Sequence record: PP400787
Direction: 5' to 3' (one strand)
DNA: 64,000 bases
DNA from: Escherichia phage FL23
Of this stretch, positions 50,213-58,115 are shown piece by piece (the first letter of the stretch is position 1; every line of letters begins with the position of its first letter). Position numbers and translations under genes: made by a program. The notes under the pieces were generated by a model, which saw nothing but the letters and a program-made list of their open reading frames with translations, made no database searches and was not told where the DNA came from.

Positions 50213-51228
50213 TAATTGAGGCCTGAGTATAAGGTGACTTATACTTGTAATCTATCTAAACGGGGAACCTCTCTAGTAGACAATCCCGTGCTAAATTGTA
50301 GGACTGCCCTTTAATAAATACTTCTATATTTAAAGAGGTATTTATGAAAAGCGGAATTTATCAGATTAAAAATACTTTAAACAATAAAGTATATGTAGGA
50401 AGTGCTAAAGATTTTGAAAAGAGATGGAAGAGGCATTTTAAAGATTTAGAAAAAGGATGCCATTCTTCTATAAAGCTTCAGAGGTCTTTTAACAAACATG
50501 GTAATGTGTTTGAATGTTCTATTTTGGAAGAAATTCCATATGAGAAAGATTTGATTATTGAACGAGAAAATTTTTGGATTAAAGAGCTTAATTCTAAAAT
50601 TAATGGATACAATATTGCTGATGCAACGTTTGGTGATACATGTTCTACGCATCCATTAAAAGAAGAAATTATTAAGAAACGTTCTGAAACTGTTAAAGCT
50701 AAGATGCTTAAACTTGGACCTGATGGTCGGAAAGCTCTTTACAGTAAACCCGGAAGTAAAAACGGGCGTTGGAATCCAGAAACCCATAAGTTTTGTAAGT
50801 GCGGTGTTCGCATACAAACTTCTGCTTATACTTGTAGTAAATGCAGAAATCGTTCAGGTGAAAATAATTCATTCTTTAATCATAAGCATTCAGACATAAC
50901 TAAATCTAAAATATCAGAAAAGATGAAAGGTAAAAAGCCTAGTAATATTAAAAAGATTTCATGTGATGGGGTTATTTTTGATTGTGCAGCAGATGCAGCT
51001 AGACATTTTAAAATTTCGTCTGGATTAGTTACTTATCGTGTAAAATCTGATAAATGGAATTGGTTCTACATAAATGCCTAACGACTATCCCTTTGGGGAG
51101 TAGGGTCAAGTGACTCGAAACGATAGACAACTTGCTTTAACAAGTTGGAGATATAGTCTGATCTGCATGGTGACATGCAGCTGGATATAATTCCGGGGTA
51201 AGATTAACGACCTTATCTGAACATAATG
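50213..51228 (+). mobile_element. td group I self-splicing intron (1016 nt) carrying I-TevI
   Basis: 5' sequence matches the T4 td intron as recalled; ends ...ACATAATG before exon 2. Confidence 0.88.
50344..51081 (+). CDS. I-TevI: I-TevI GIY-YIG homing endonuclease, 245 aa
   Basis: MKSGIYQIKNTLNNKVYVGSAKDFEKRWKRH GIY-YIG motif; C-terminal zinc finger and DNA-binding domain. Confidence 0.92.
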   Translation: MKSGIYQIKNTLNNKVYVGSAKDFEKRWKRHFKDLEKGCHSSIKLQRSFNKHGNVFECSILEEIPYEKDLIIERENFWIKELNSKINGYNIADATFGDTCSTHPLKEEIIKKRSETVKAKMLKLGPDGRKALYSKPGSKNGRWNPETHKFCKCGVRIQTSAYTCSKCRNRSGENNSFFNHKHSDITKSKISEKMKGKKPSNIKKISCDGVIFDCAADAARHFKISSGLVTYRVKSDKWNWFYINA

Positions 51229-51540: not shown

Positions 51541-51800
51541 TTTTACGATTTAAAGATACTTCTGGCGTTGTTCTTTTTACACTTCCTAACCCAAGCGAGT
51601 TAGAAGTTCCAGGACCAGAACAGCCTATTATCATTTATGGTAAAAAATATTATACTCATAAAATGACTCGTGAGTATTTTGATAATAAAATTTCCACAGT
51701 TAAAACTTCTTCAGATTGTTACTATGATATTACTGTATTAACGGAAAAACAATATGACGAATTATCAACGCGCGGGCCGTCTATGCCAGGTAGTGAATAA
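51537..51800 (+). CDS. hypothetical protein, 87 aa
   Basis: ATGA overlap with td stop. Confidence 0.5.
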
Positions 51801-52080
51801 ATATAAATCCGACTTTGATGTTAATATTCACCGTGGTACATTTTGGGGAAATTACGTCGGTAAAGATGCTGGCAGCCGGGAGGCTGCCATTGAATTATTC
51901 AAAAAAGATTTTATACGTCGAATTAAATCCGGAGAAATAACTAAAGCACATTTAGAGCCTTTACGTGGAATGAGGCTAGGATGCACATGTAAACCAAAGC
52001 CGTGTCATGGTGATATAATAGCTCATATAGTTAACCGATTGTTTAAAGACGATTTTCAAGTTGAGGACTTATGCAATTAA
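51754..52080 (+). CDS. hypothetical protein, 108 aa
   Basis: ORF; overlaps both neighbours. Confidence 0.5.
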
Positions 52081-53504
52081 TTAATGTTATCAAAAGTAGT
52101 GGTGTTTCTCAGAGCTTTGACCCGCAAAAAATTATTAAAGTTTTATCTTGGGCAGCTGAGGGAACATCAGTAGATCCTTATGAATTATATGAAAATATTA
52201 AATCATATCTCCGTGATGGAATGACCACTGATGATATTCAGACTATTGTCATTAAGGCCGCTGCGAATTCTATTTCGGTTGAAGAACCTGATTATCAATA
52301 TGTAGCTGCACGCTGTTTAATGTTTGCTCTTCGTAAGCATGTTTATGGGCAGTATGAACCACGTTCATTTATTGACCATATTTCTTACTGTGTAAATGAA
52401 GGTAAATATGACCCTGAATTATTGTCAAAATATTCAGCAGAAGAAATTACATTTTTAGAATCAAAAATTAAGCACGAACGGGATATGGAATTTACTTATT
52501 CCGGGGCGATGCAATTAAAAGAAAAATATCTAGTTAAAGATAAAACCACTGGTCAAATTTATGAAACTCCGCAGTTTGCATTTATGACTATTGGAATGGC
52601 ACTGCATCAAGATGAACCTGTTGACAGATTAAAACATGTTATTCGTTTTTATGAAGCAGTATCTACTCGACAGATTTCACTGCCAACTCCTATTATGGCT
52701 GGTTGCCGTACTCCAACTCGACAGTTTAGTTCATGCGTTGTTATTGAAGCAGGTGATTCGCTGAAGTCTATCAATAAGGCTTCTGCTTCAATTGTTGAGT
52801 ATATTTCTAAACGAGCTGGAATTGGCATTAACGTTGGTATGATTCGTGCTGAAGGTTCTAAGATTGGCACAGGTGAAGTGCGTCATACTGGCGTTATTCC
52901 TTTTTGGAAACATTTTCAGACTGCTGTTAAATCATGCTCACAGGGTGGAATTCGTGGCGGCGCTGCTACTGCTTATTATCCTATTTGGCATTTGGAAGTT
53001 GAAAATCTTCTCGTTTTGAAAAATAACAAAGGCGTAGAAGAAAACCGTATCCGTCATATGGATTATGGCGTCCAGCTGAATGATTTGATGATGGAACGTT
53101 TTGGAAAGAACGACTACATCACTTTGTTCAGTCCACATGAAATGGGTGGCGAACTTTATTATTCTTATTTTAAAGACCAAGACCGTTTCCGTGAATTGTA
53201 CGAAGCAGCAGAAAAAGACCCTAATATTCGTAAAAAGCGTATTAAAGCTCGTGAACTATTTGAATTGCTCATGACTGAACGTTCAGGAACAGCAAGGATT
53301 TATGTACAGTTCATTGATAATACGAATAACTATACTCCGTTTATTCGTGAAAAGGCGCCTATTCGTCAGAGTAACTTGTGCTGTGAAATTGCTATTCCAA
53401 CAAATGATGTGAATAGCCAACAAACCCGTTTAATCAAAATTAAGAAGTCGGATGTAGCTAAGTTTTATGAAGCTAATCCTGGCGGTATAATTCAAAGCAA
53501 ATAA
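52071..53504 (+). CDS. nrdA: ribonucleotide reductase alpha subunit, N-terminal fragment (NrdA-a), 477 aa
   Basis: Class Ia RNR alpha homology through active-site NLCCEIAIPTNDV, then ~30 unrelated codons and stop. Confidence 0.85.
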   Translation: MQLINVIKSSGVSQSFDPQKIIKVLSWAAEGTSVDPYELYENIKSYLRDGMTTDDIQTIVIKAAANSISVEEPDYQYVAARCLMFALRKHVYGQYEPRSFIDHISYCVNEGKYDPELLSKYSAEEITFLESKIKHERDMEFTYSGAMQLKEKYLVKDKTTGQIYETPQFAFMTIGMALHQDEPVDRLKHVIRFYEAVSTRQISLPTPIMAGCRTPTRQFSSCVVIEAGDSLKSINKASASIVEYISKRAGIGINVGMIRAEGSKIGTGEVRHTGVIPFWKHFQTAVKSCSQGGIRGGAATAYYPIWHLEVENLLVLKNNKGVEENRIRHMDYGVQLNDLMMERFGKNDYITLFSPHEMGGELYYSYFKDQDRFRELYEAAEKDPNIRKKRIKARELFELLMTERSGTARIYVQFIDNTNNYTPFIREKAPIRQSNLCCEIAIPTNDVNSQQTRLIKIKKSDVAKFYEANPGGIIQSK

Positions 53505-53549
53505 AGTACACAGACCGTTAATAAATAATCCATAACAAGAGGAAAAGTT

Positions 53550-54260
53550 ATGGATTATTTTAAAATTTACAATAACCTTATTTCTAAAGCTAAGAATAGA
53601 AAATTAGATTGCTATACCGAATCACACCATATTATACCTCTGTGTATTGGTGGTTCTGATACAAAGGAAAACCTGGTAGATTTGACACCAGAAGAGCATT
53701 ACATAGCTCATCAATTATTAGTAAAGATATATCCAGATAATCATAAATTGATATTTGCCGCTAATATGATGTGTGTTTATTCTAAAGATAATATTGAACG
53801 AAAGAACACCAATAAACGCCATGGGTGGCTTAGAAGAAAATTGGCTATTTCTGTATCTGAAAATAATAAAGGCAAACCAGCTTGGAACAAAGGTATTCCT
53901 ATGTCTCCAGAAGTTAAATCTCGACTTCAAACATCTTGGGTGTTTACATTTCCGGATGGTCATGAGGAAATTCATCGAGGTCTTAACGAATTTTGTAAAG
54001 AGCATAATTTAAATCCATCTGCAATGTCAGCCGTTTGTAAAGGTAAACGGTCGCATCACAAAGGATTTAAGTGTAAGAAATTGGATAAGATTTCAGAGCT
54101 TGATAATTTAGTTTTCGTCAGTAAACCTCATCCAAAGGGATTAAAACCCCATAACTTAATTGCTGTAAAAATAAACGGTATAGAATATCAATCAATACAT
54201 CGAGCATCTAAAGCTTTAGGAATTACTAGAAAAAAGGTAGAAGAATTAAATGAATATTGA
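53550..54260 (+). CDS. HNH homing endonuclease (Mob-like) inserted within nrdA, 236 aa
   Basis: HNH motif ESHHIIP...KENLV...EEHYIAH; C-terminal NUMOD-like motifs (GKPAWNKG, IEYQSIHRASKALGI). Confidence 0.8.
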   Translation: MDYFKIYNNLISKAKNRKLDCYTESHHIIPLCIGGSDTKENLVDLTPEEHYIAHQLLVKIYPDNHKLIFAANMMCVYSKDNIERKNTNKRHGWLRRKLAISVSENNKGKPAWNKGIPMSPEVKSRLQTSWVFTFPDGHEEIHRGLNEFCKEHNLNPSAMSAVCKGKRSHHKGFKCKKLDKISELDNLVFVSKPHPKGLKPHNLIAVKINGIEYQSIHRASKALGITRKKVEELNEY

Positions 54261-55239
54261 TTATGAATTTGTAGATGAATTTTACGAAGATGATGAGTAT
54301 ACTACAATAAAAGTTATTGAAAACAAGGGAGAAGTGGGGCTTTGTACTCTCTCTGCATTCGTACTAGATAATTTTGACTGGCAAGACCAAGATAAAATTA
54401 ATGAATTGGCAGAAGTTCAAGTTCGTGCTCTTGATAATCTTTTGGATTACCAAGGATATCCAGTTCCTGAAGCAGAAAAAGCTAAAAAGCGTCGTAACCT
54501 TGGTGTAGGTGTTACTAACTATGCAGCTTGGCTGGCAAGTAACTTTGCTTCTTATGAAGATGCTAACGATTTAACACATGAACTATTTGAGAGATTACAG
54601 TATGGACTCATTAAAGCATCCATTAAGCTCGCCAAAGAAAAAGGACCTTGCGAATATTATTCAGACACTCGTTGGTCTCGAGGCGAACTACCTATCGACT
54701 GGTACAATAAAAAGATTGACCAAATCGCAGCTCCAAAATACGTTTGTGACTGGTCGTCGCTGCGGGAAGACCTTAAGCTCTTTGGCATCCGTAATAGCAC
54801 ATTATCAGCACTTATGCCATGTGAGTCATCTTCCCAAGTTTCTAACAGTACAAACGGTATCGAGCCTCCACGTGGACCGGTAAGTGTTAAAGAATCAAAA
54901 GAGGGTTCATTTAATCAAGTTGTTCCGAATATTGAGCATAACATAGACCTTTACGACTATACATGGAAATTAGCTAAGAAAGGTAATAAACCTTATCTTA
55001 CGCAGGTAGCTATTATGCTGAAATGGGTATGTCAATCGGCTTCAGCGAATACATATTATGACCCACAGATTTTTCCAAAAGGAAAGGTTCCAATGTCAAT
55101 AATGATTGATGATATGCTATACGGATGGTATTATGGCATTAAAAATTTCTATTATCATAATACCCGCGATGGTTCTGGTACTGATGATTATGAAATAGAA
55201 ACTCCAAAAGCAGATGATTGTTCATCCTGTAAATTATGA
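54250..55239 (+). CDS. nrdA: ribonucleotide reductase alpha subunit, C-terminal fragment (NrdA-b), 329 aa
   Basis: From GEVGLCTLSAF colinear with NrdA C-terminal half to the CxxC tail; own ATG overlapping the HNH stop. Confidence 0.85.
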   Translation: MNIDYEFVDEFYEDDEYTTIKVIENKGEVGLCTLSAFVLDNFDWQDQDKINELAEVQVRALDNLLDYQGYPVPEAEKAKKRRNLGVGVTNYAAWLASNFASYEDANDLTHELFERLQYGLIKASIKLAKEKGPCEYYSDTRWSRGELPIDWYNKKIDQIAAPKYVCDWSSLREDLKLFGIRNSTLSALMPCESSSQVSNSTNGIEPPRGPVSVKESKEGSFNQVVPNIEHNIDLYDYTWKLAKKGNKPYLTQVAIMLKWVCQSASANTYYDPQIFPKGKVPMSIMIDDMLYGWYYGIKNFYYHNTRDGSGTDDYEIETPKADDCSSCKL

Positions 55240-56848
55240 TATAATTACCACAAGGATGTGGTTAACTAAGAATAACGCTATGTTTGATAATATATACAAA
55301 AACGGAAAGTTTCTTCCATTTGGAGAAGAAAAACTTAAATCTAGACTAACAGAAGAAGATAAAGCTCTTCTAACTGATGGAATAGATTTTAAGCTCAATG
55401 TGTTCCAAATTATGGAAGGCATTGACATTAACGATCTAAAATGTGCAGTTTGTGGAAATTTCATTTCTCTGAAAACGGCAAAGAAACGTGTATTTCCAGC
55501 AACATGTAGTAAATCCTGCGCAGGGATATTTTTCGCGGATAAGAGAATTCAAAGCCGTGATACAAATTTTGGCGGAAAAGAAAAATATAAAAAATATTTG
55601 TCTGAACTTCAACGCAAAAATTCTTTAGAAAAATATGGAACAACTCATCAAAAAATTTCAAGAAATAAAAATAGAAAAACTTTAATTGAACGATATGGGG
55701 TAACGCATAATTCACAATTAGAAAGTGTGAAAGAAGCGAGAAAAGTTATAGAAAACGGTAAATCAGTTGATATTCTGAATTCTAGAAAATCTCGCGAAAA
55801 ATCTAAGAAGACTAAATTAAATTGGACTGAAGAATATAAGGCATCGTTATATTCATCTATAGGAAAATCTATTAAAAATAACGGTCATATTAATCATGAT
55901 ATACTAGATAAAATCAATTACAAAATTTCTATAGAAGAACTACAACAATTAGCAAATTGTTCTCGGATGACGGCTTATAGAGCTCTTTCATCCAAAGGAC
56001 TAATTGACGTTCATTATACTCAAAGTTCTATAGAGCAATTCATTTTAGATCTAGGATTTGATTGCGTAGAAACTAGAAAAATTATTCCTCCGTATGAATT
56101 AGATATTTACATTCCTGAGAAAAAATTGGCTATAGAATACGATGGAATTTATTGGCATTCTAGCGGGTCAAAGGAAACAGATAAAATTAAAGAAACTTAT
56201 CATTTGATGAAGACAGAGATGTGTGAAGCACAAGGAATTCAATTACTTCACATCTTCGAAAATGAATGGATTGATGATACAAAAAGAGAGATCTGGAAAT
56301 CCATTATAAAGCATAAATTAGGATTATCAGAAAGAATACCAGCCCGAAAATGCAAAGCGCGTTTTGTTAATAAGGATGAGGCAAAAGAATTTATTAATAA
56401 GAATCATCTTCAAGGATTTTGCTCGGGAGCTCATACGTATAAAGGACTTTATTACAATAATGAGTTAGTTCAAATTATTTCTATCGGTAAATCTAGATAT
56501 AGCTCAGGTGATGAACTTTTAAGGATGTGTTCAAAATTAGGGATTTGTGTTGTAGGAGGAGCCTCAAAATTATTAAAAGGAATTAATTGTCTATCTTATG
56601 GCAATCGAAGATGGTGCAGTACATTATCAAATGTTTATGACTCTGTCATGGAATTTAGTCATATCTCTGAGCCGTGTTATTGGTATGTCGATAAAGGAGA
56701 GGTATTTCACCGCTCGAGCTATATGAAACATAAGCTTAAAAACAAGCTTAAAAATTATGATGATACAATAACTGAAGTAGAAAATTGTTATGCAAATGGT
56801 CTTAGAAGAATCTGGGACTGTGGAAATTTAGTTTACAGGACAAAATAA
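55214..56848 (+). CDS. large putative nuclease: Zn ribbon, YG-TH repeats, Vsr/DUF559-like PD-(D/E)xK core and uncharacterised C-terminal domain (up to 544 aa; likely start 55256 or 55280)
   Basis: Motifs CAVCGNF...CSKSC, EKYGTTH/ERYGVTHNSQ repeats, YELDIYIPEKKLAIEYDGIYWHS...GIQLLHIFENEW. Confidence 0.6.
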   Translation: MIVHPVNYDIITTRMWLTKNNAMFDNIYKNGKFLPFGEEKLKSRLTEEDKALLTDGIDFKLNVFQIMEGIDINDLKCAVCGNFISLKTAKKRVFPATCSKSCAGIFFADKRIQSRDTNFGGKEKYKKYLSELQRKNSLEKYGTTHQKISRNKNRKTLIERYGVTHNSQLESVKEARKVIENGKSVDILNSRKSREKSKKTKLNWTEEYKASLYSSIGKSIKNNGHINHDILDKINYKISIEELQQLANCSRMTAYRALSSKGLIDVHYTQSSIEQFILDLGFDCVETRKIIPPYELDIYIPEKKLAIEYDGIYWHSSGSKETDKIKETYHLMKTEMCEAQGIQLLHIFENEWIDDTKREIWKSIIKHKLGLSERIPARKCKARFVNKDEAKEFINKNHLQGFCSGAHTYKGLYYNNELVQIISIGKSRYSSGDELLRMCSKLGICVVGGASKLLKGINCLSYGNRRWCSTLSNVYDSVMEFSHISEPCYWYVDKGEVFHRSSYMKHKLKNKLKNYDDTITEVENCYANGLRRIWDCGNLVYRTK

Positions 56849-57523
56849 TGAGTACAGTTTTTAATACTAAACAGGTCGATGTTTTAAAAGAACCTATGTT
56901 TTTTGGTTCAGGTCTTGGTATTGCGCGTTATGATATTCAACGGCATCGAGTATTTGAAGAACTTATTGAACGTCAGCTCTCGTTTTTCTGGCGTCCTGAA
57001 GAAGTAAACTTGATGATGGATGCTGCACAGTTTAATAAGCTTCCTCAGTATCAACAAAATATTTTTACTAATAATCTGAAGTATCAATCATTACTTGATA
57101 GTATTCAAGGTCGTGCGCCGTCTGCTGTACTTATGCCATTGCTTTCAGACCCAAGCCTTGATACATGGGTTGCTACATGGACTTTTAGTGAAACTATTCA
57201 CAGTCGTTCATATACTCATATCATGCGAAATCTTTATACTGATCCGTCAAAGGTATTTGATGAGATTGTATTAGATGAAGCTATTATGAAACGTGCTGAA
57301 TCTATCGGTCGTTATTATGATGATGTTCTGACTAAAACCCGTGAATGGGAAAATGCTAAAGAATTTGTAGAACTAGCTAAAGAATCTCCTGATGCCGACT
57401 TTCGTTTAAACCGAGCTATTAAACAAGAAGCCGAAGCTAAACGTGCTTTAATGAAATCTCTTTACCTCTGTTTGCACGTTATTAATGCCTTAGAAGCTAT
57501 TCGTTTTTATGTATCTTTTGCGT
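56848..57523 (+). CDS. nrdB: ribonucleotide reductase beta subunit, exon 1
   Basis: NrdB homology to ...IRFYVSFA; frame is then interrupted; junction assigned so the split codon T|GT gives the conserved Cys. Confidence 0.85.
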
Positions 57524-58115
57524 AAAATGCGCCTTTAAACGGTAACGTTTATCGAAAACTCCTTTAATTGCTGGAAAGTCCTTTATAGGAAAACTAGCAG
57601 CCAAGGTTTTGCTTGCACCTTTAATTAGTATAATATGATTATACTTTTAAGAGGATGCACAATTGAACTATAGAAAAATTTGGATAGATGCTAACGGACC
57701 TACCTAAAGATTCTGATGGAAGACCATAAGAAAAGAACATCAGCAAAAACATTAGAAATGGTTAAGAATGGGACCCATCCTGCACAAAAAGAAATCACAT
57801 GTGATTTCTGCGGTCACATTGGTAAAGGTCCTGGATTTTATCTAAAACATAATGACAGATGTAAATTAAATCCAAATAGAATTCAATTGAATTGTCCATA
57901 TTGTGATAAGAAAGATTTATCACCATCAACATATAAACGATGGCACGGCGACAATTGCAAAGCAAGGTTCAACGACTAGTCTTCGGACGTAGGGTCAAGC
58001 GACTCGAAATGGGGAGAATCCCTCTGGGATTGTGATATAGTCTGGTCTGCATAGTAATATGTAGCAGTTCATAAGAGAACGGGTTGAGAATTAGCGAGCT
58101 CAATCGAACATAACG
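57524..58115 (+). mobile_element. nrdB group I intron (~592 nt) with truncated endonuclease ORF
   Basis: Non-coding insertion at the position of the T4 nrdB intron; 3' end ...GAACATAACG parallels td intron 3' end; boundaries approximate. Confidence 0.75.
57716..57979 (+). CDS. I-TevIII-like remnant (Cys-rich DNA-binding part, no HNH domain), 87 aa
   Basis: CDFCGH...CPYCDKK...C zinc-finger motifs only; inside the nrdB intron. Confidence 0.5.
   Translation: MEDHKKRTSAKTLEMVKNGTHPAQKEITCDFCGHIGKGPGFYLKHNDRCKLNPNRIQLNCPYCDKKDLSPSTYKRWHGDNCKARFND

Follow-up and report, generated by a model that had tools for sequence, protein, structure and literature searches.

The locus considered here raises the question of how a T4-like phage might keep a class Ia ribonucleotide reductase (RNR) whose alpha-subunit gene, nrdA, has been broken in two inside the active site. 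In a stretch of 64,000 nucleotides (nt) of DNA from Escherichia phage FL23 (sequence record PP400787), which stretch at its full length we call the window, two open reading frames (ORFs) that each resemble a part of NrdA are separated by the gene of an HNH endonuclease. The nrdA region, at 52071-55239, is 100% identical to that of the T4-like Escherichia phage FL44 (PP400790.1, reverse strand), and in the comparisons below "FL44" stands for this allele. A preliminary description of the window had located the three ORFs at the positions listed in Table 1, which placement the ORF list confirmed, and had viewed the middle one as a free-standing endonuclease insertion of the kind known from Aeromonas phage Aeh1. 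We consider it highly probable, by extension from the expression and activity data on Aeh1, that a "MobE-split" cassette spread by homing splits nrdA and that the two resulting chains reassemble.

The first ORF (nrdA-a) matches in Pfam the ATP-cone (PF03477), the all-alpha domain (PF00317), and positions 1-221 of the 523 of the barrel PF02867, while the last ORF (nrdA-b) matches positions 219-523 of that same profile; because these barrel matches join end to end, NrdA-a and NrdA-b constitute colinear halves of one NrdA, a proposal of the preliminary description that the alignment to intact alleles also bears out. The resemblance to NrdA ends after NDVN (53414) and resumes at GEVGLC (54328), just where it had been said to do so, and the break in the class Ia barrel therefore has the thiyl-radical cysteine loop (NLCCEIA) on one side and the following active-site cysteine (GLCTL) on the other; that is, it lies between the equivalents of the Cys439 loop and of Cys462. 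The split beside the active-site cysteine loop is thus real, with Cys437 remaining in NrdA-a and Cys32 in NrdA-b. Equally correct was the reading that the end of the HNH gene overlaps the ATG of nrdA-b at 54250, the overlap being of 11 nt, with the HNH stop 8 nt past that ATG.

Friedrich and colleagues are said to have described in PNAS, in 2007, the nrdA-a/mobE/nrdA-b locus of Aeh1 as a "genes-in-pieces" RNR. The middle ORF of the window, which matches the HNH and I-HmuI NUMOD-like domains in Pfam and the "homing endonuclease" family phrog_655 (E=4e-59), is 46% identical to the MobE of Aeh1 over 227 amino acids (aa; E=1e-57). The FL44-type HNH protein and Aeh1 MobE are reciprocal best matches in the phage collection, and, beyond the records of Aeh1 itself, the closest full-length relatives of its MobE in that collection are found precisely in the coliphages with a split nrdA, followed by HNH genes about 31% identical, located at uvsW. 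The layouts match as well: NrdA-a, the HNH protein, and NrdA-b measure 477, 236, and 329 aa in FL44 versus 473, 237, and 323 aa in Aeh1; the spacer before the HNH gene is of 45 versus 46 nt, the overlap of the HNH gene with nrdA-b of 11 versus 14 nt, and the active-site cysteine of NrdA-b is Cys32 versus Cys31. The two loci have in common the split site, the homologous HNH genes, both homologous tails—the stretches that close NrdA-a (tail-a) and open NrdA-b (tail-b)—and a hairpin over the mobE start. On these sequence comparisons the link to Aeh1 is one of homology, not of analogy, and the insertion of the Aeh1 kind that had been suspected is sustained by the reciprocal best match, the split site, and the gene spacing. 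The differences concern the genus, which is Tequatrovirus or Mosigvirus here but Cinqassovirus for Aeh1; the position of nrdA, which in the window, unlike in Aeh1, is still that of T4 beside td and nrdB; and the distribution, the coliphage cassette being sporadic and accompanied by closely related empty-site alleles, unlike that of Aeh1.

In one respect the preliminary description needs refining: the 30 or so codons closing NrdA-a that it had called unrelated, and the 26 or so opening NrdA-b, encode conserved tails that are homologous to those of Aeh1 and under purifying selection. The alignments of FL44 with Aeh1 read TRLIKIKKSDVAKF versus KMLFKVKKSEVDKF in tail-a—whose distal part differs, being …ANPGGIIQSK in FL44 and …MVATDQYKSLRY in Aeh1—and MNIDYEFVDEFYEDDEYTT versus M-IEHERIYEVYEDEEYTT in tail-b. 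These charged tails, basic on NrdA-a and acidic on NrdA-b, are absent from intact NrdA. Scored from just past the conserved P-T (33 residues), tail-a has an isoelectric point (pI) of 9.7 and a net charge of +3, and tail-b a pI of 4.1 and a net charge of -7; the Aeh1 tails are basic (pI 10.4) and acidic (pI 3.8) (Crona et al. 2011 NAR, PMC3045599).

Among 5.8 billion proteins, the full-length homologues of the HNH protein formed a graded series of 50-82% identity, ahead of Aeh1 MobE at 46%. The metagenomic homologues with 50-67% identity that we examined on their contigs, eight in number, all lay directly before an nrdA-b gene and, in seven instances, directly after an nrdA-a gene. The metagenomic NrdA-a proteins were of 474-485 aa (614 aa in one with an extra intein), the eighth contig being cut inside nrdA-a, and the five complete nrdA-b genes encoded 324-329 aa. 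FL44, Aeh1, and the eight metagenomic contigs constitute the ten-member family to which we refer below, in all ten members of which tail-a contains the motif L[IVF]K[IV][KR]K[SKC][DE][IV]xxF and tail-b the motif YE[IF]VxEFYEDDEYTT[ILV]x[IV], with YEDDEYTT nearly invariant. Throughout the family tail-a retains a pI of 9.5-10.3 (net charge +3 to +7) and tail-b a pI of 4.1 (net charge -7 to -13). In the 32 best-conserved tail codons the synonymous divergence (pS) was 0.59-0.85, close to saturation, and the non-synonymous divergence (pN) 0.06-0.25, the variable columns numbering 19, 12, and 29 at the first, second, and third codon positions, respectively. Since synonymous change was near saturation while non-synonymous change stayed low, the tails must have been selected as protein.

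This result bears directly on the possibility of a group I intron carrying an HNH ORF, whose splicing would restore a continuous nrdA mRNA. Such an intron would not be out of place, since HNH ORFs are frequent in the introns of phage RNR genes and two genuine group I introns lie in the window itself, in the neighbouring nucleotide-metabolism genes td and nrdB (Rfam Intron_gpI: 42.5 bits at 50950-51180 and 34 bits at 57824-58064, respectively, both on the + strand and both below the gathering score of 50). The sequence that flanks the HNH gene within the insert, however, shares the reading frame of nrdA and is conserved at the protein level, its synonymous sites being saturated, and the stop and start codons are kept in all ten family members. 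Moreover, the 45 nt of non-coding sequence would be too little RNA for a ribozyme. A first Rfam scan, over 11 kb, missed the td intron and was therefore not trusted as a negative; redone on short regions, with the td intron as a positive control, the scan recovered that intron at 42.5 bits (E=3e-9) but gave no Intron_gpI match at E<=10 in 53350-54400. Finally, the homologous Aeh1 locus gives two polypeptides with intact tails (PMC3045599). The intron reading, which the preliminary description had also disfavoured, is accordingly extremely improbable.

A different alternative would be that the tails were the halves of a split intein, degenerate or not, and that the chains were joined by protein trans-splicing, a degenerate intein having been raised as a possible origin by Crona et al. 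(PMC3045599). RNR genes are favoured intein sites, the halves of split inteins likewise attract each other electrostatically, and in one family member a true intein is located ten codons before the cassette. The tails, however, are of merely 30 and 26 residues, with neither a conserved Cys or Ser nucleophile opening tail-a nor a conserved His-Asn closing tail-b; Pfam searches with the tails alone found no match, nor any Hint or intein match at E<=10, whereas the true intein just mentioned was recognized; and the mature Aeh1 proteins retain their tails (PMC3045599). To trans-splicing we thus assign next to no probability. The contig with that intein (L011, 607-2451; metagenome contig ERZ14207129 NODE_16) encodes an NrdA-a of 614 aa with a Hint-domain intein at the catalytic cysteine (…VHN|CLEIAIPT…), which intein lies some ten codons upstream of the MobE cassette, so that two different selfish elements are inserted within about 30 nt of coding sequence.

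As to where the tails came from, only one fragment came back when the initial 68 residues of NrdA-b were used in a word-indexed search, and in a HMMER search of 1.84 billion representatives with NrdA-b residues 1-77 that one fragment alone covered the tail, the other matches starting at or near the NrdA core. Because this exhaustive search yielded the one fragment, there is no evidence of an unsplit NrdA with a tail-like loop or of any other source of the tails. Nor did we find tails without the endonuclease, tail-a and the HNH gene occurring in the same 34 phage records.

The limits of the cassette could be fixed from two pairs of split and intact alleles in different nrdA backgrounds, FL44/SHFML-11 and AV111/SSE1. 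An uninterrupted nrdA of 2265 nt exists in about 770 related phage records with flanks about 97% identical to those of the window, and in the alignment with the intact allele of SHFML-11, again with flanks about 97% identical, the net insertion amounts to 904 nt. The 24 nt that the cassette replaces in the intact allele are AGT CCT GAT GCT GAA ATT GGA TTG, coding for SPDAEIGL. In order, the cassette comprises tail-a with its TAA, the 45-nt spacer, the HNH gene, the overlapping ATG and 26 codons of tail-b—whose GC content of 23% is the lowest in the region—and five re-coded native codons. In this last stretch 7 of the 15 nt differ from the intact allele, and the homology is back exactly at the Cys codon at 54343; these GEVGL codons are likely donor-derived and would probably destroy the target of the endonuclease.

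Table 1. Features of the split nrdA locus, in positions of the window
Feature	Position	Strand	Description
nrdA-a	52071-53504	+	477 aa (ORF list); N-terminal 447 residues of class Ia NrdA, including Cys222 and N435-L-C437-x-E439, then 30-codon tail and TAA stop
mobE-like free-standing HNH homing endonuclease gene	53550-54260	+	236 aa (ORF list)
nrdA-b	54250-55239	+	329 aa (ORF list); 26-codon acidic tail, then C-terminal half of NrdA with Cys32, Tyr-Tyr radical-transfer pair, and C-terminal CSSC redox tail
Mobile cassette	53415-54342	+	928 nt, replacing 24 nt of intact nrdA alleles
Empty site in intact allele			CCAACAAATGATGTGAAT / AGTCCTGATGCTGAAATTGGATTG / TGTACTCTC
Tail-a	53415-53501	+	SQQTRLIKIKKSDVAKFYEANPGGIIQSK; basic C-terminal extension of NrdA-a, 29 codons, then TAA
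Spacer	53505-53549	+	45 nt; only non-coding DNA of the insert
Late-promoter-like box	53520-53527	+	AATAAATA, within the spacer; resembles the T4 late-promoter box TATAAATA
Hairpin over HNH start	53523-53560	+	Predicted 14-bp stem, 53523-53536 paired with 53547-53560
Shine-Dalgarno-like AAGGT	54234-54238	+	11 nt before the nrdA-b AUG, inside the 3' end of the HNH gene
Tail-b	54250-54327	+	MNIDYEFVDEFYEDDEYTTIKVIENK; acidic N-terminal extension of NrdA-b, 26 codons
Re-coded native codons	54328-54342	+	GGA GAA GTG GGG CTT (GEVGL) versus GCT GAA ATT GGA TTG (AEIGL) in intact alleles

The cassette was found in 34 phage records out of about 800 with a related nrdA, as well as in the 8 independent metagenomic contigs, the records being those of Escherichia, Shigella, Yersinia, and Salmonella phages labelled as Tequatrovirus or Mosigvirus. 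A sequencing or assembly artefact of one genome could be thought of if attention were limited to the record of Escherichia phage UFV-AREG1, which contains an assembly oddity beside the cassette; but since 34 records, the work of many laboratories, and 8 metagenomic contigs all have the identical arrangement, that explanation is ruled out for all practical purposes. The oddity itself (L018, 1758-1980; NC_031030.2) is an insertion of 223 nt just upstream of the cassette that ends in N and duplicates cassette-free, empty-site nrdA sequence, which insertion resembles an assembly artefact and may stem from a phage stock with both cassette-plus and cassette-minus alleles.

When FL44 was compared with F2, AV111, and PTE-Eco05, the nrdA flanks were 75-85% identical versus 96-100% for tail-a, the spacer, the 5' half of the HNH gene, and tail-b; between FL44 and PTE-Eco05, in particular, pS was 0.000 in the HNH gene but 0.72 in the flanks. 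AV111 has flanks that match those of SSE1, an intact Mosigvirus allele, as far as the two cassette boundaries found in FL44; in PTE-Eco05 the sequence immediately right of the cassette is of the Tequatrovirus type for 21 nt and then changes to the Mosigvirus type, the 21-nt stretch constituting a donor-type co-conversion tract. A cassette that is 97-100% identical in nrdA backgrounds of 75-80% identity, with identical boundaries, co-conversion tracts, and related empty sites, carries a homing signature for those very reasons; the footprint is that to be expected of homing into a defined site and suggests that the element is mobile. In the cassette-free Mosigvirus Shigella phage SSE1 a different HNH homing endonuclease gene lies directly upstream of the intact nrdA and overlaps its start (L017, 447-1082).

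The endonuclease that would perform such homing looks active, to judge from its intact motif and from a pN/pS of 0.17-0.25: no family member departs from H26, H27, and N41, and H50 and H54 are almost as constant. The 3' half of the gene (53900-54150), which corresponds to the NUMOD-like DNA-binding region, exists in two coliphage alleles that are only about 79% identical, the remaining cassette being 96-100% identical; HY01 and AV111 have one of them, FL44, fPS-2, and PTE-Eco05 the other, and F2 is intermediate, so that the cassette is therefore a mosaic. The next-closest full-length relatives of the HNH protein (30-34% identity; in PST, SP18, PM2, and others) overlap genes annotated as the uvsW helicase, and a "uvsW-A" appears in the annotation of PST; it may be that uvsW is split likewise by a related Mob endonuclease.

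Whether the broken gene still yields an enzyme is a separate consideration. If nrdA had been inactivated, both ORFs would be decaying remnants and the phage would rely on the RNR of its host, which possibility could be entertained in that the break falls within the active-site barrel and that nrdA is not an absolute requirement for phages in laboratory hosts. Between split alleles, however, pN/pS was 0.00-0.13 for nrdA-a and 0.04-0.14 for nrdA-b, with pS reaching up to 0.72, thus revealing strong purifying selection on both halves; furthermore, Cys222, Asn435, Cys437, and Glu439 of NrdA-a, and Cys32, the Tyr-Tyr pair, and the C-terminal Cys pair of NrdA-b, are invariant across split and intact sequences, so that every family member retains all of the catalytic residues. 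In view of these pN/pS values and invariant residues, both halves of nrdA are still constrained. The tails, too, are conserved from the coliphages to Aeh1, and the enzyme of Aeh1 is fully active (PMC3045599). Inactivation is consequently very unlikely, and these selection data argue for the continued function of the split nrdA.

The expression of the three genes may be guided by signals in the cassette. The hairpin over the HNH start contains the Shine-Dalgarno sequence GAGG in its 10-nt loop and the AUG (53550) within its 3' arm; the 131-nt region that includes it has a predicted folding energy of -22.2 kcal/mol (z = -2.57), and each family member is predicted to form a hairpin at this location, the two arms both having undergone changes. 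In Aeh1 a hairpin that sequesters the ribosome-binding site occupies the same position (PMC2988022, PMC3045599), the difference being that here the AUG is buried and the Shine-Dalgarno sequence looped out, while the latter lies within the stem in Aeh1. At the start of the 5' arm of the hairpin a (T)ATAAATA box is present in nine of the ten family members, Aeh1 having only TAAATA, inside the hairpin; from its sequence the AATAAATA box of the window would be a candidate late promoter. Together, the hairpin and this late-promoter-like box suggest for the mobE-like gene a regulation in the style of I-TevI, in which scheme no endonuclease is made from the long early transcripts, its translation proceeding from late ones that are devoid of the 5' arm (PMC2988022). 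Upstream of the nrdA-b start, a GAGG- or AAGGT-like element is present in 10/10 family members, and is consistent with an independent initiation of nrdA-b as reported for Aeh1. A scan of 51700-57000 for sigma-70 promoters and terminators gave results at chance level. A GT(A/G)CA(C/T)A motif occurs at the nrdA-a stop, or up to about 20 nt after it, in nine of the ten family members (53505-53515 in the window), Aeh1 being without it at that place. Two further candidates for reuniting the halves were discarded: a translational bypass as in T4 gene 60, in view of a gap of 746 nt that holds a full gene, and an excision at the level of DNA, the comparison of split and intact alleles having disclosed no direct repeats at the cassette boundaries.

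We propose, then, the following sequence of events for the MobE-split cassette. NrdA-b would be translated from its own Shine-Dalgarno sequence inside the end of mobE, while the hairpin over the start of mobE would hold the translation of the endonuclease down, with a possible relief on late transcripts. The two NrdA chains would reassemble non-covalently into a composite active site, and the basic tail of NrdA-a and the acidic tail of NrdA-b would promote the assembly of an (alpha-a/alpha-b)2-beta2 holoenzyme. MobE, for its part, would cut the cassette-free nrdA of co-infecting phages, whose repair would copy the cassette together with variable stretches of its flanks. The separate polypeptides, the enzyme activity, the role of the tails, the regulation by the hairpin, and the endonuclease activity are all expected here from the biochemistry of Aeh1, for which separate polypeptides with intact tails were found by mass spectrometry and in which the deletion of the tails, which are essential, lowered the activity about 2000-fold (PMC3045599).

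Certain observations nevertheless weigh against this scheme. The box of the spacer, AATAAATA, departs from the consensus TATAAATA, and the Shine-Dalgarno sequence before nrdA-b is weak and lies 11 nt back. T4 nrdA, moreover, is dispensable in the laboratory, so that the continued function of the split gene could not simply be assumed. Across the deeper metagenomic members, in addition, the divergence of the HNH protein tracks that of NrdA, which correspondence indicates that the family is old and that much of its history may be one of vertical descent rather than of homing.

The window contains other selfish elements near the cassette. A 544-aa ORF (55214-56848, + strand) shares 26 nt with the end of nrdA-b and occupies the interval between nrdA and nrdB, the place of T4 mobE; its matches are to phrog_3339, "homing endonuclease" (E=7e-152), and, at a weak level, to the Pfam domain REase_MTES_1575. 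The td intron, which was found in a 1.25-kb scan, carries an I-TevI-like ORF (50344-51081). This 544-aa ORF, the introns of td and nrdB, and the nrdA cassette make up four selfish elements within about 8 kb.

Several known systems resemble the cassette in part. The MobE of T4 (PMC2988022) is of the same HNH domain family, with about 46% identity to the window's HNH protein over the N-terminal 130 or so residues, and resides in the same gene neighbourhood, but is intergenic between nrdA and nrdB, splits nothing, and has an unrelated C-terminal region. The T4 mobA gene, which splits the large subunit of the topoisomerase into genes 39 and 60, is likewise that of an HNH Mob endonuclease in an essential enzyme gene, and the products of genes 39 and 60 have C- and N-terminal extensions thought, as in the split NrdA, to aid reassembly; the target and the extensions are nonetheless others, and a 50-nt translational bypass is involved that is absent from the nrdA cassette. 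The HNH endonucleases of group I introns, such as I-TevIII in nrdB, and the inteins of RNRs are also selfish and target conserved catalytic regions of RNR, but introns and inteins restore one polypeptide by RNA or protein splicing, of neither of which does the nrdA cassette bear the signature.

The phenomenon as such is already known from Aeh1 (2007, 2011), which case is, among the papers that could be searched, the sole published one of a homing-endonuclease break in the active site of an essential enzyme that is rescued without RNA or protein splicing; as recently as 2023 a paper referred to it as "at least one instance". For the coliphage cases no paper analysing them was found in the searchable literature, and the GenBank annotation of those loci consists of two RNR alpha-subunit genes plus a homing endonuclease. 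The main text of a 2022 preprint (bioRxiv 10.1101/2022.08.31.505936) mentions "MobE_split" insertions as unpublished and contains no analysis of them; to go by that text, those cases are what the window displays. What is added here is the homology of the tails across the family, the selection on those tails, the exact boundaries of the cassette, and a signature of horizontal transfer in a genetically tractable host.

One and the same cassette, with its tails, thus circulates among ordinary T4-like phages of E. coli, Shigella, Yersinia, and Salmonella, and the annotation "two nrdA genes plus a homing endonuclease" should be taken to denote one functional unit and not a pseudogene. With near-isogenic empty-site phages and T4 genetics at hand, the E. 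coli system makes homing, target recognition, and the tail-driven reassembly directly testable. Because the endonuclease gene and the tails move together, and selection acts on the latter, the idea gains support that the element brings with it a remedy for the harm done by its insertion. We consider it somewhat probable that the cassette is a self-contained "split-and-staple" element, whose mobile tails would let the endonuclease gene enter any class Ia nrdA core without destroying the enzyme; if so, homing endonucleases would have, beside introns and inteins, a third and portable means of neutralizing their own insertion.

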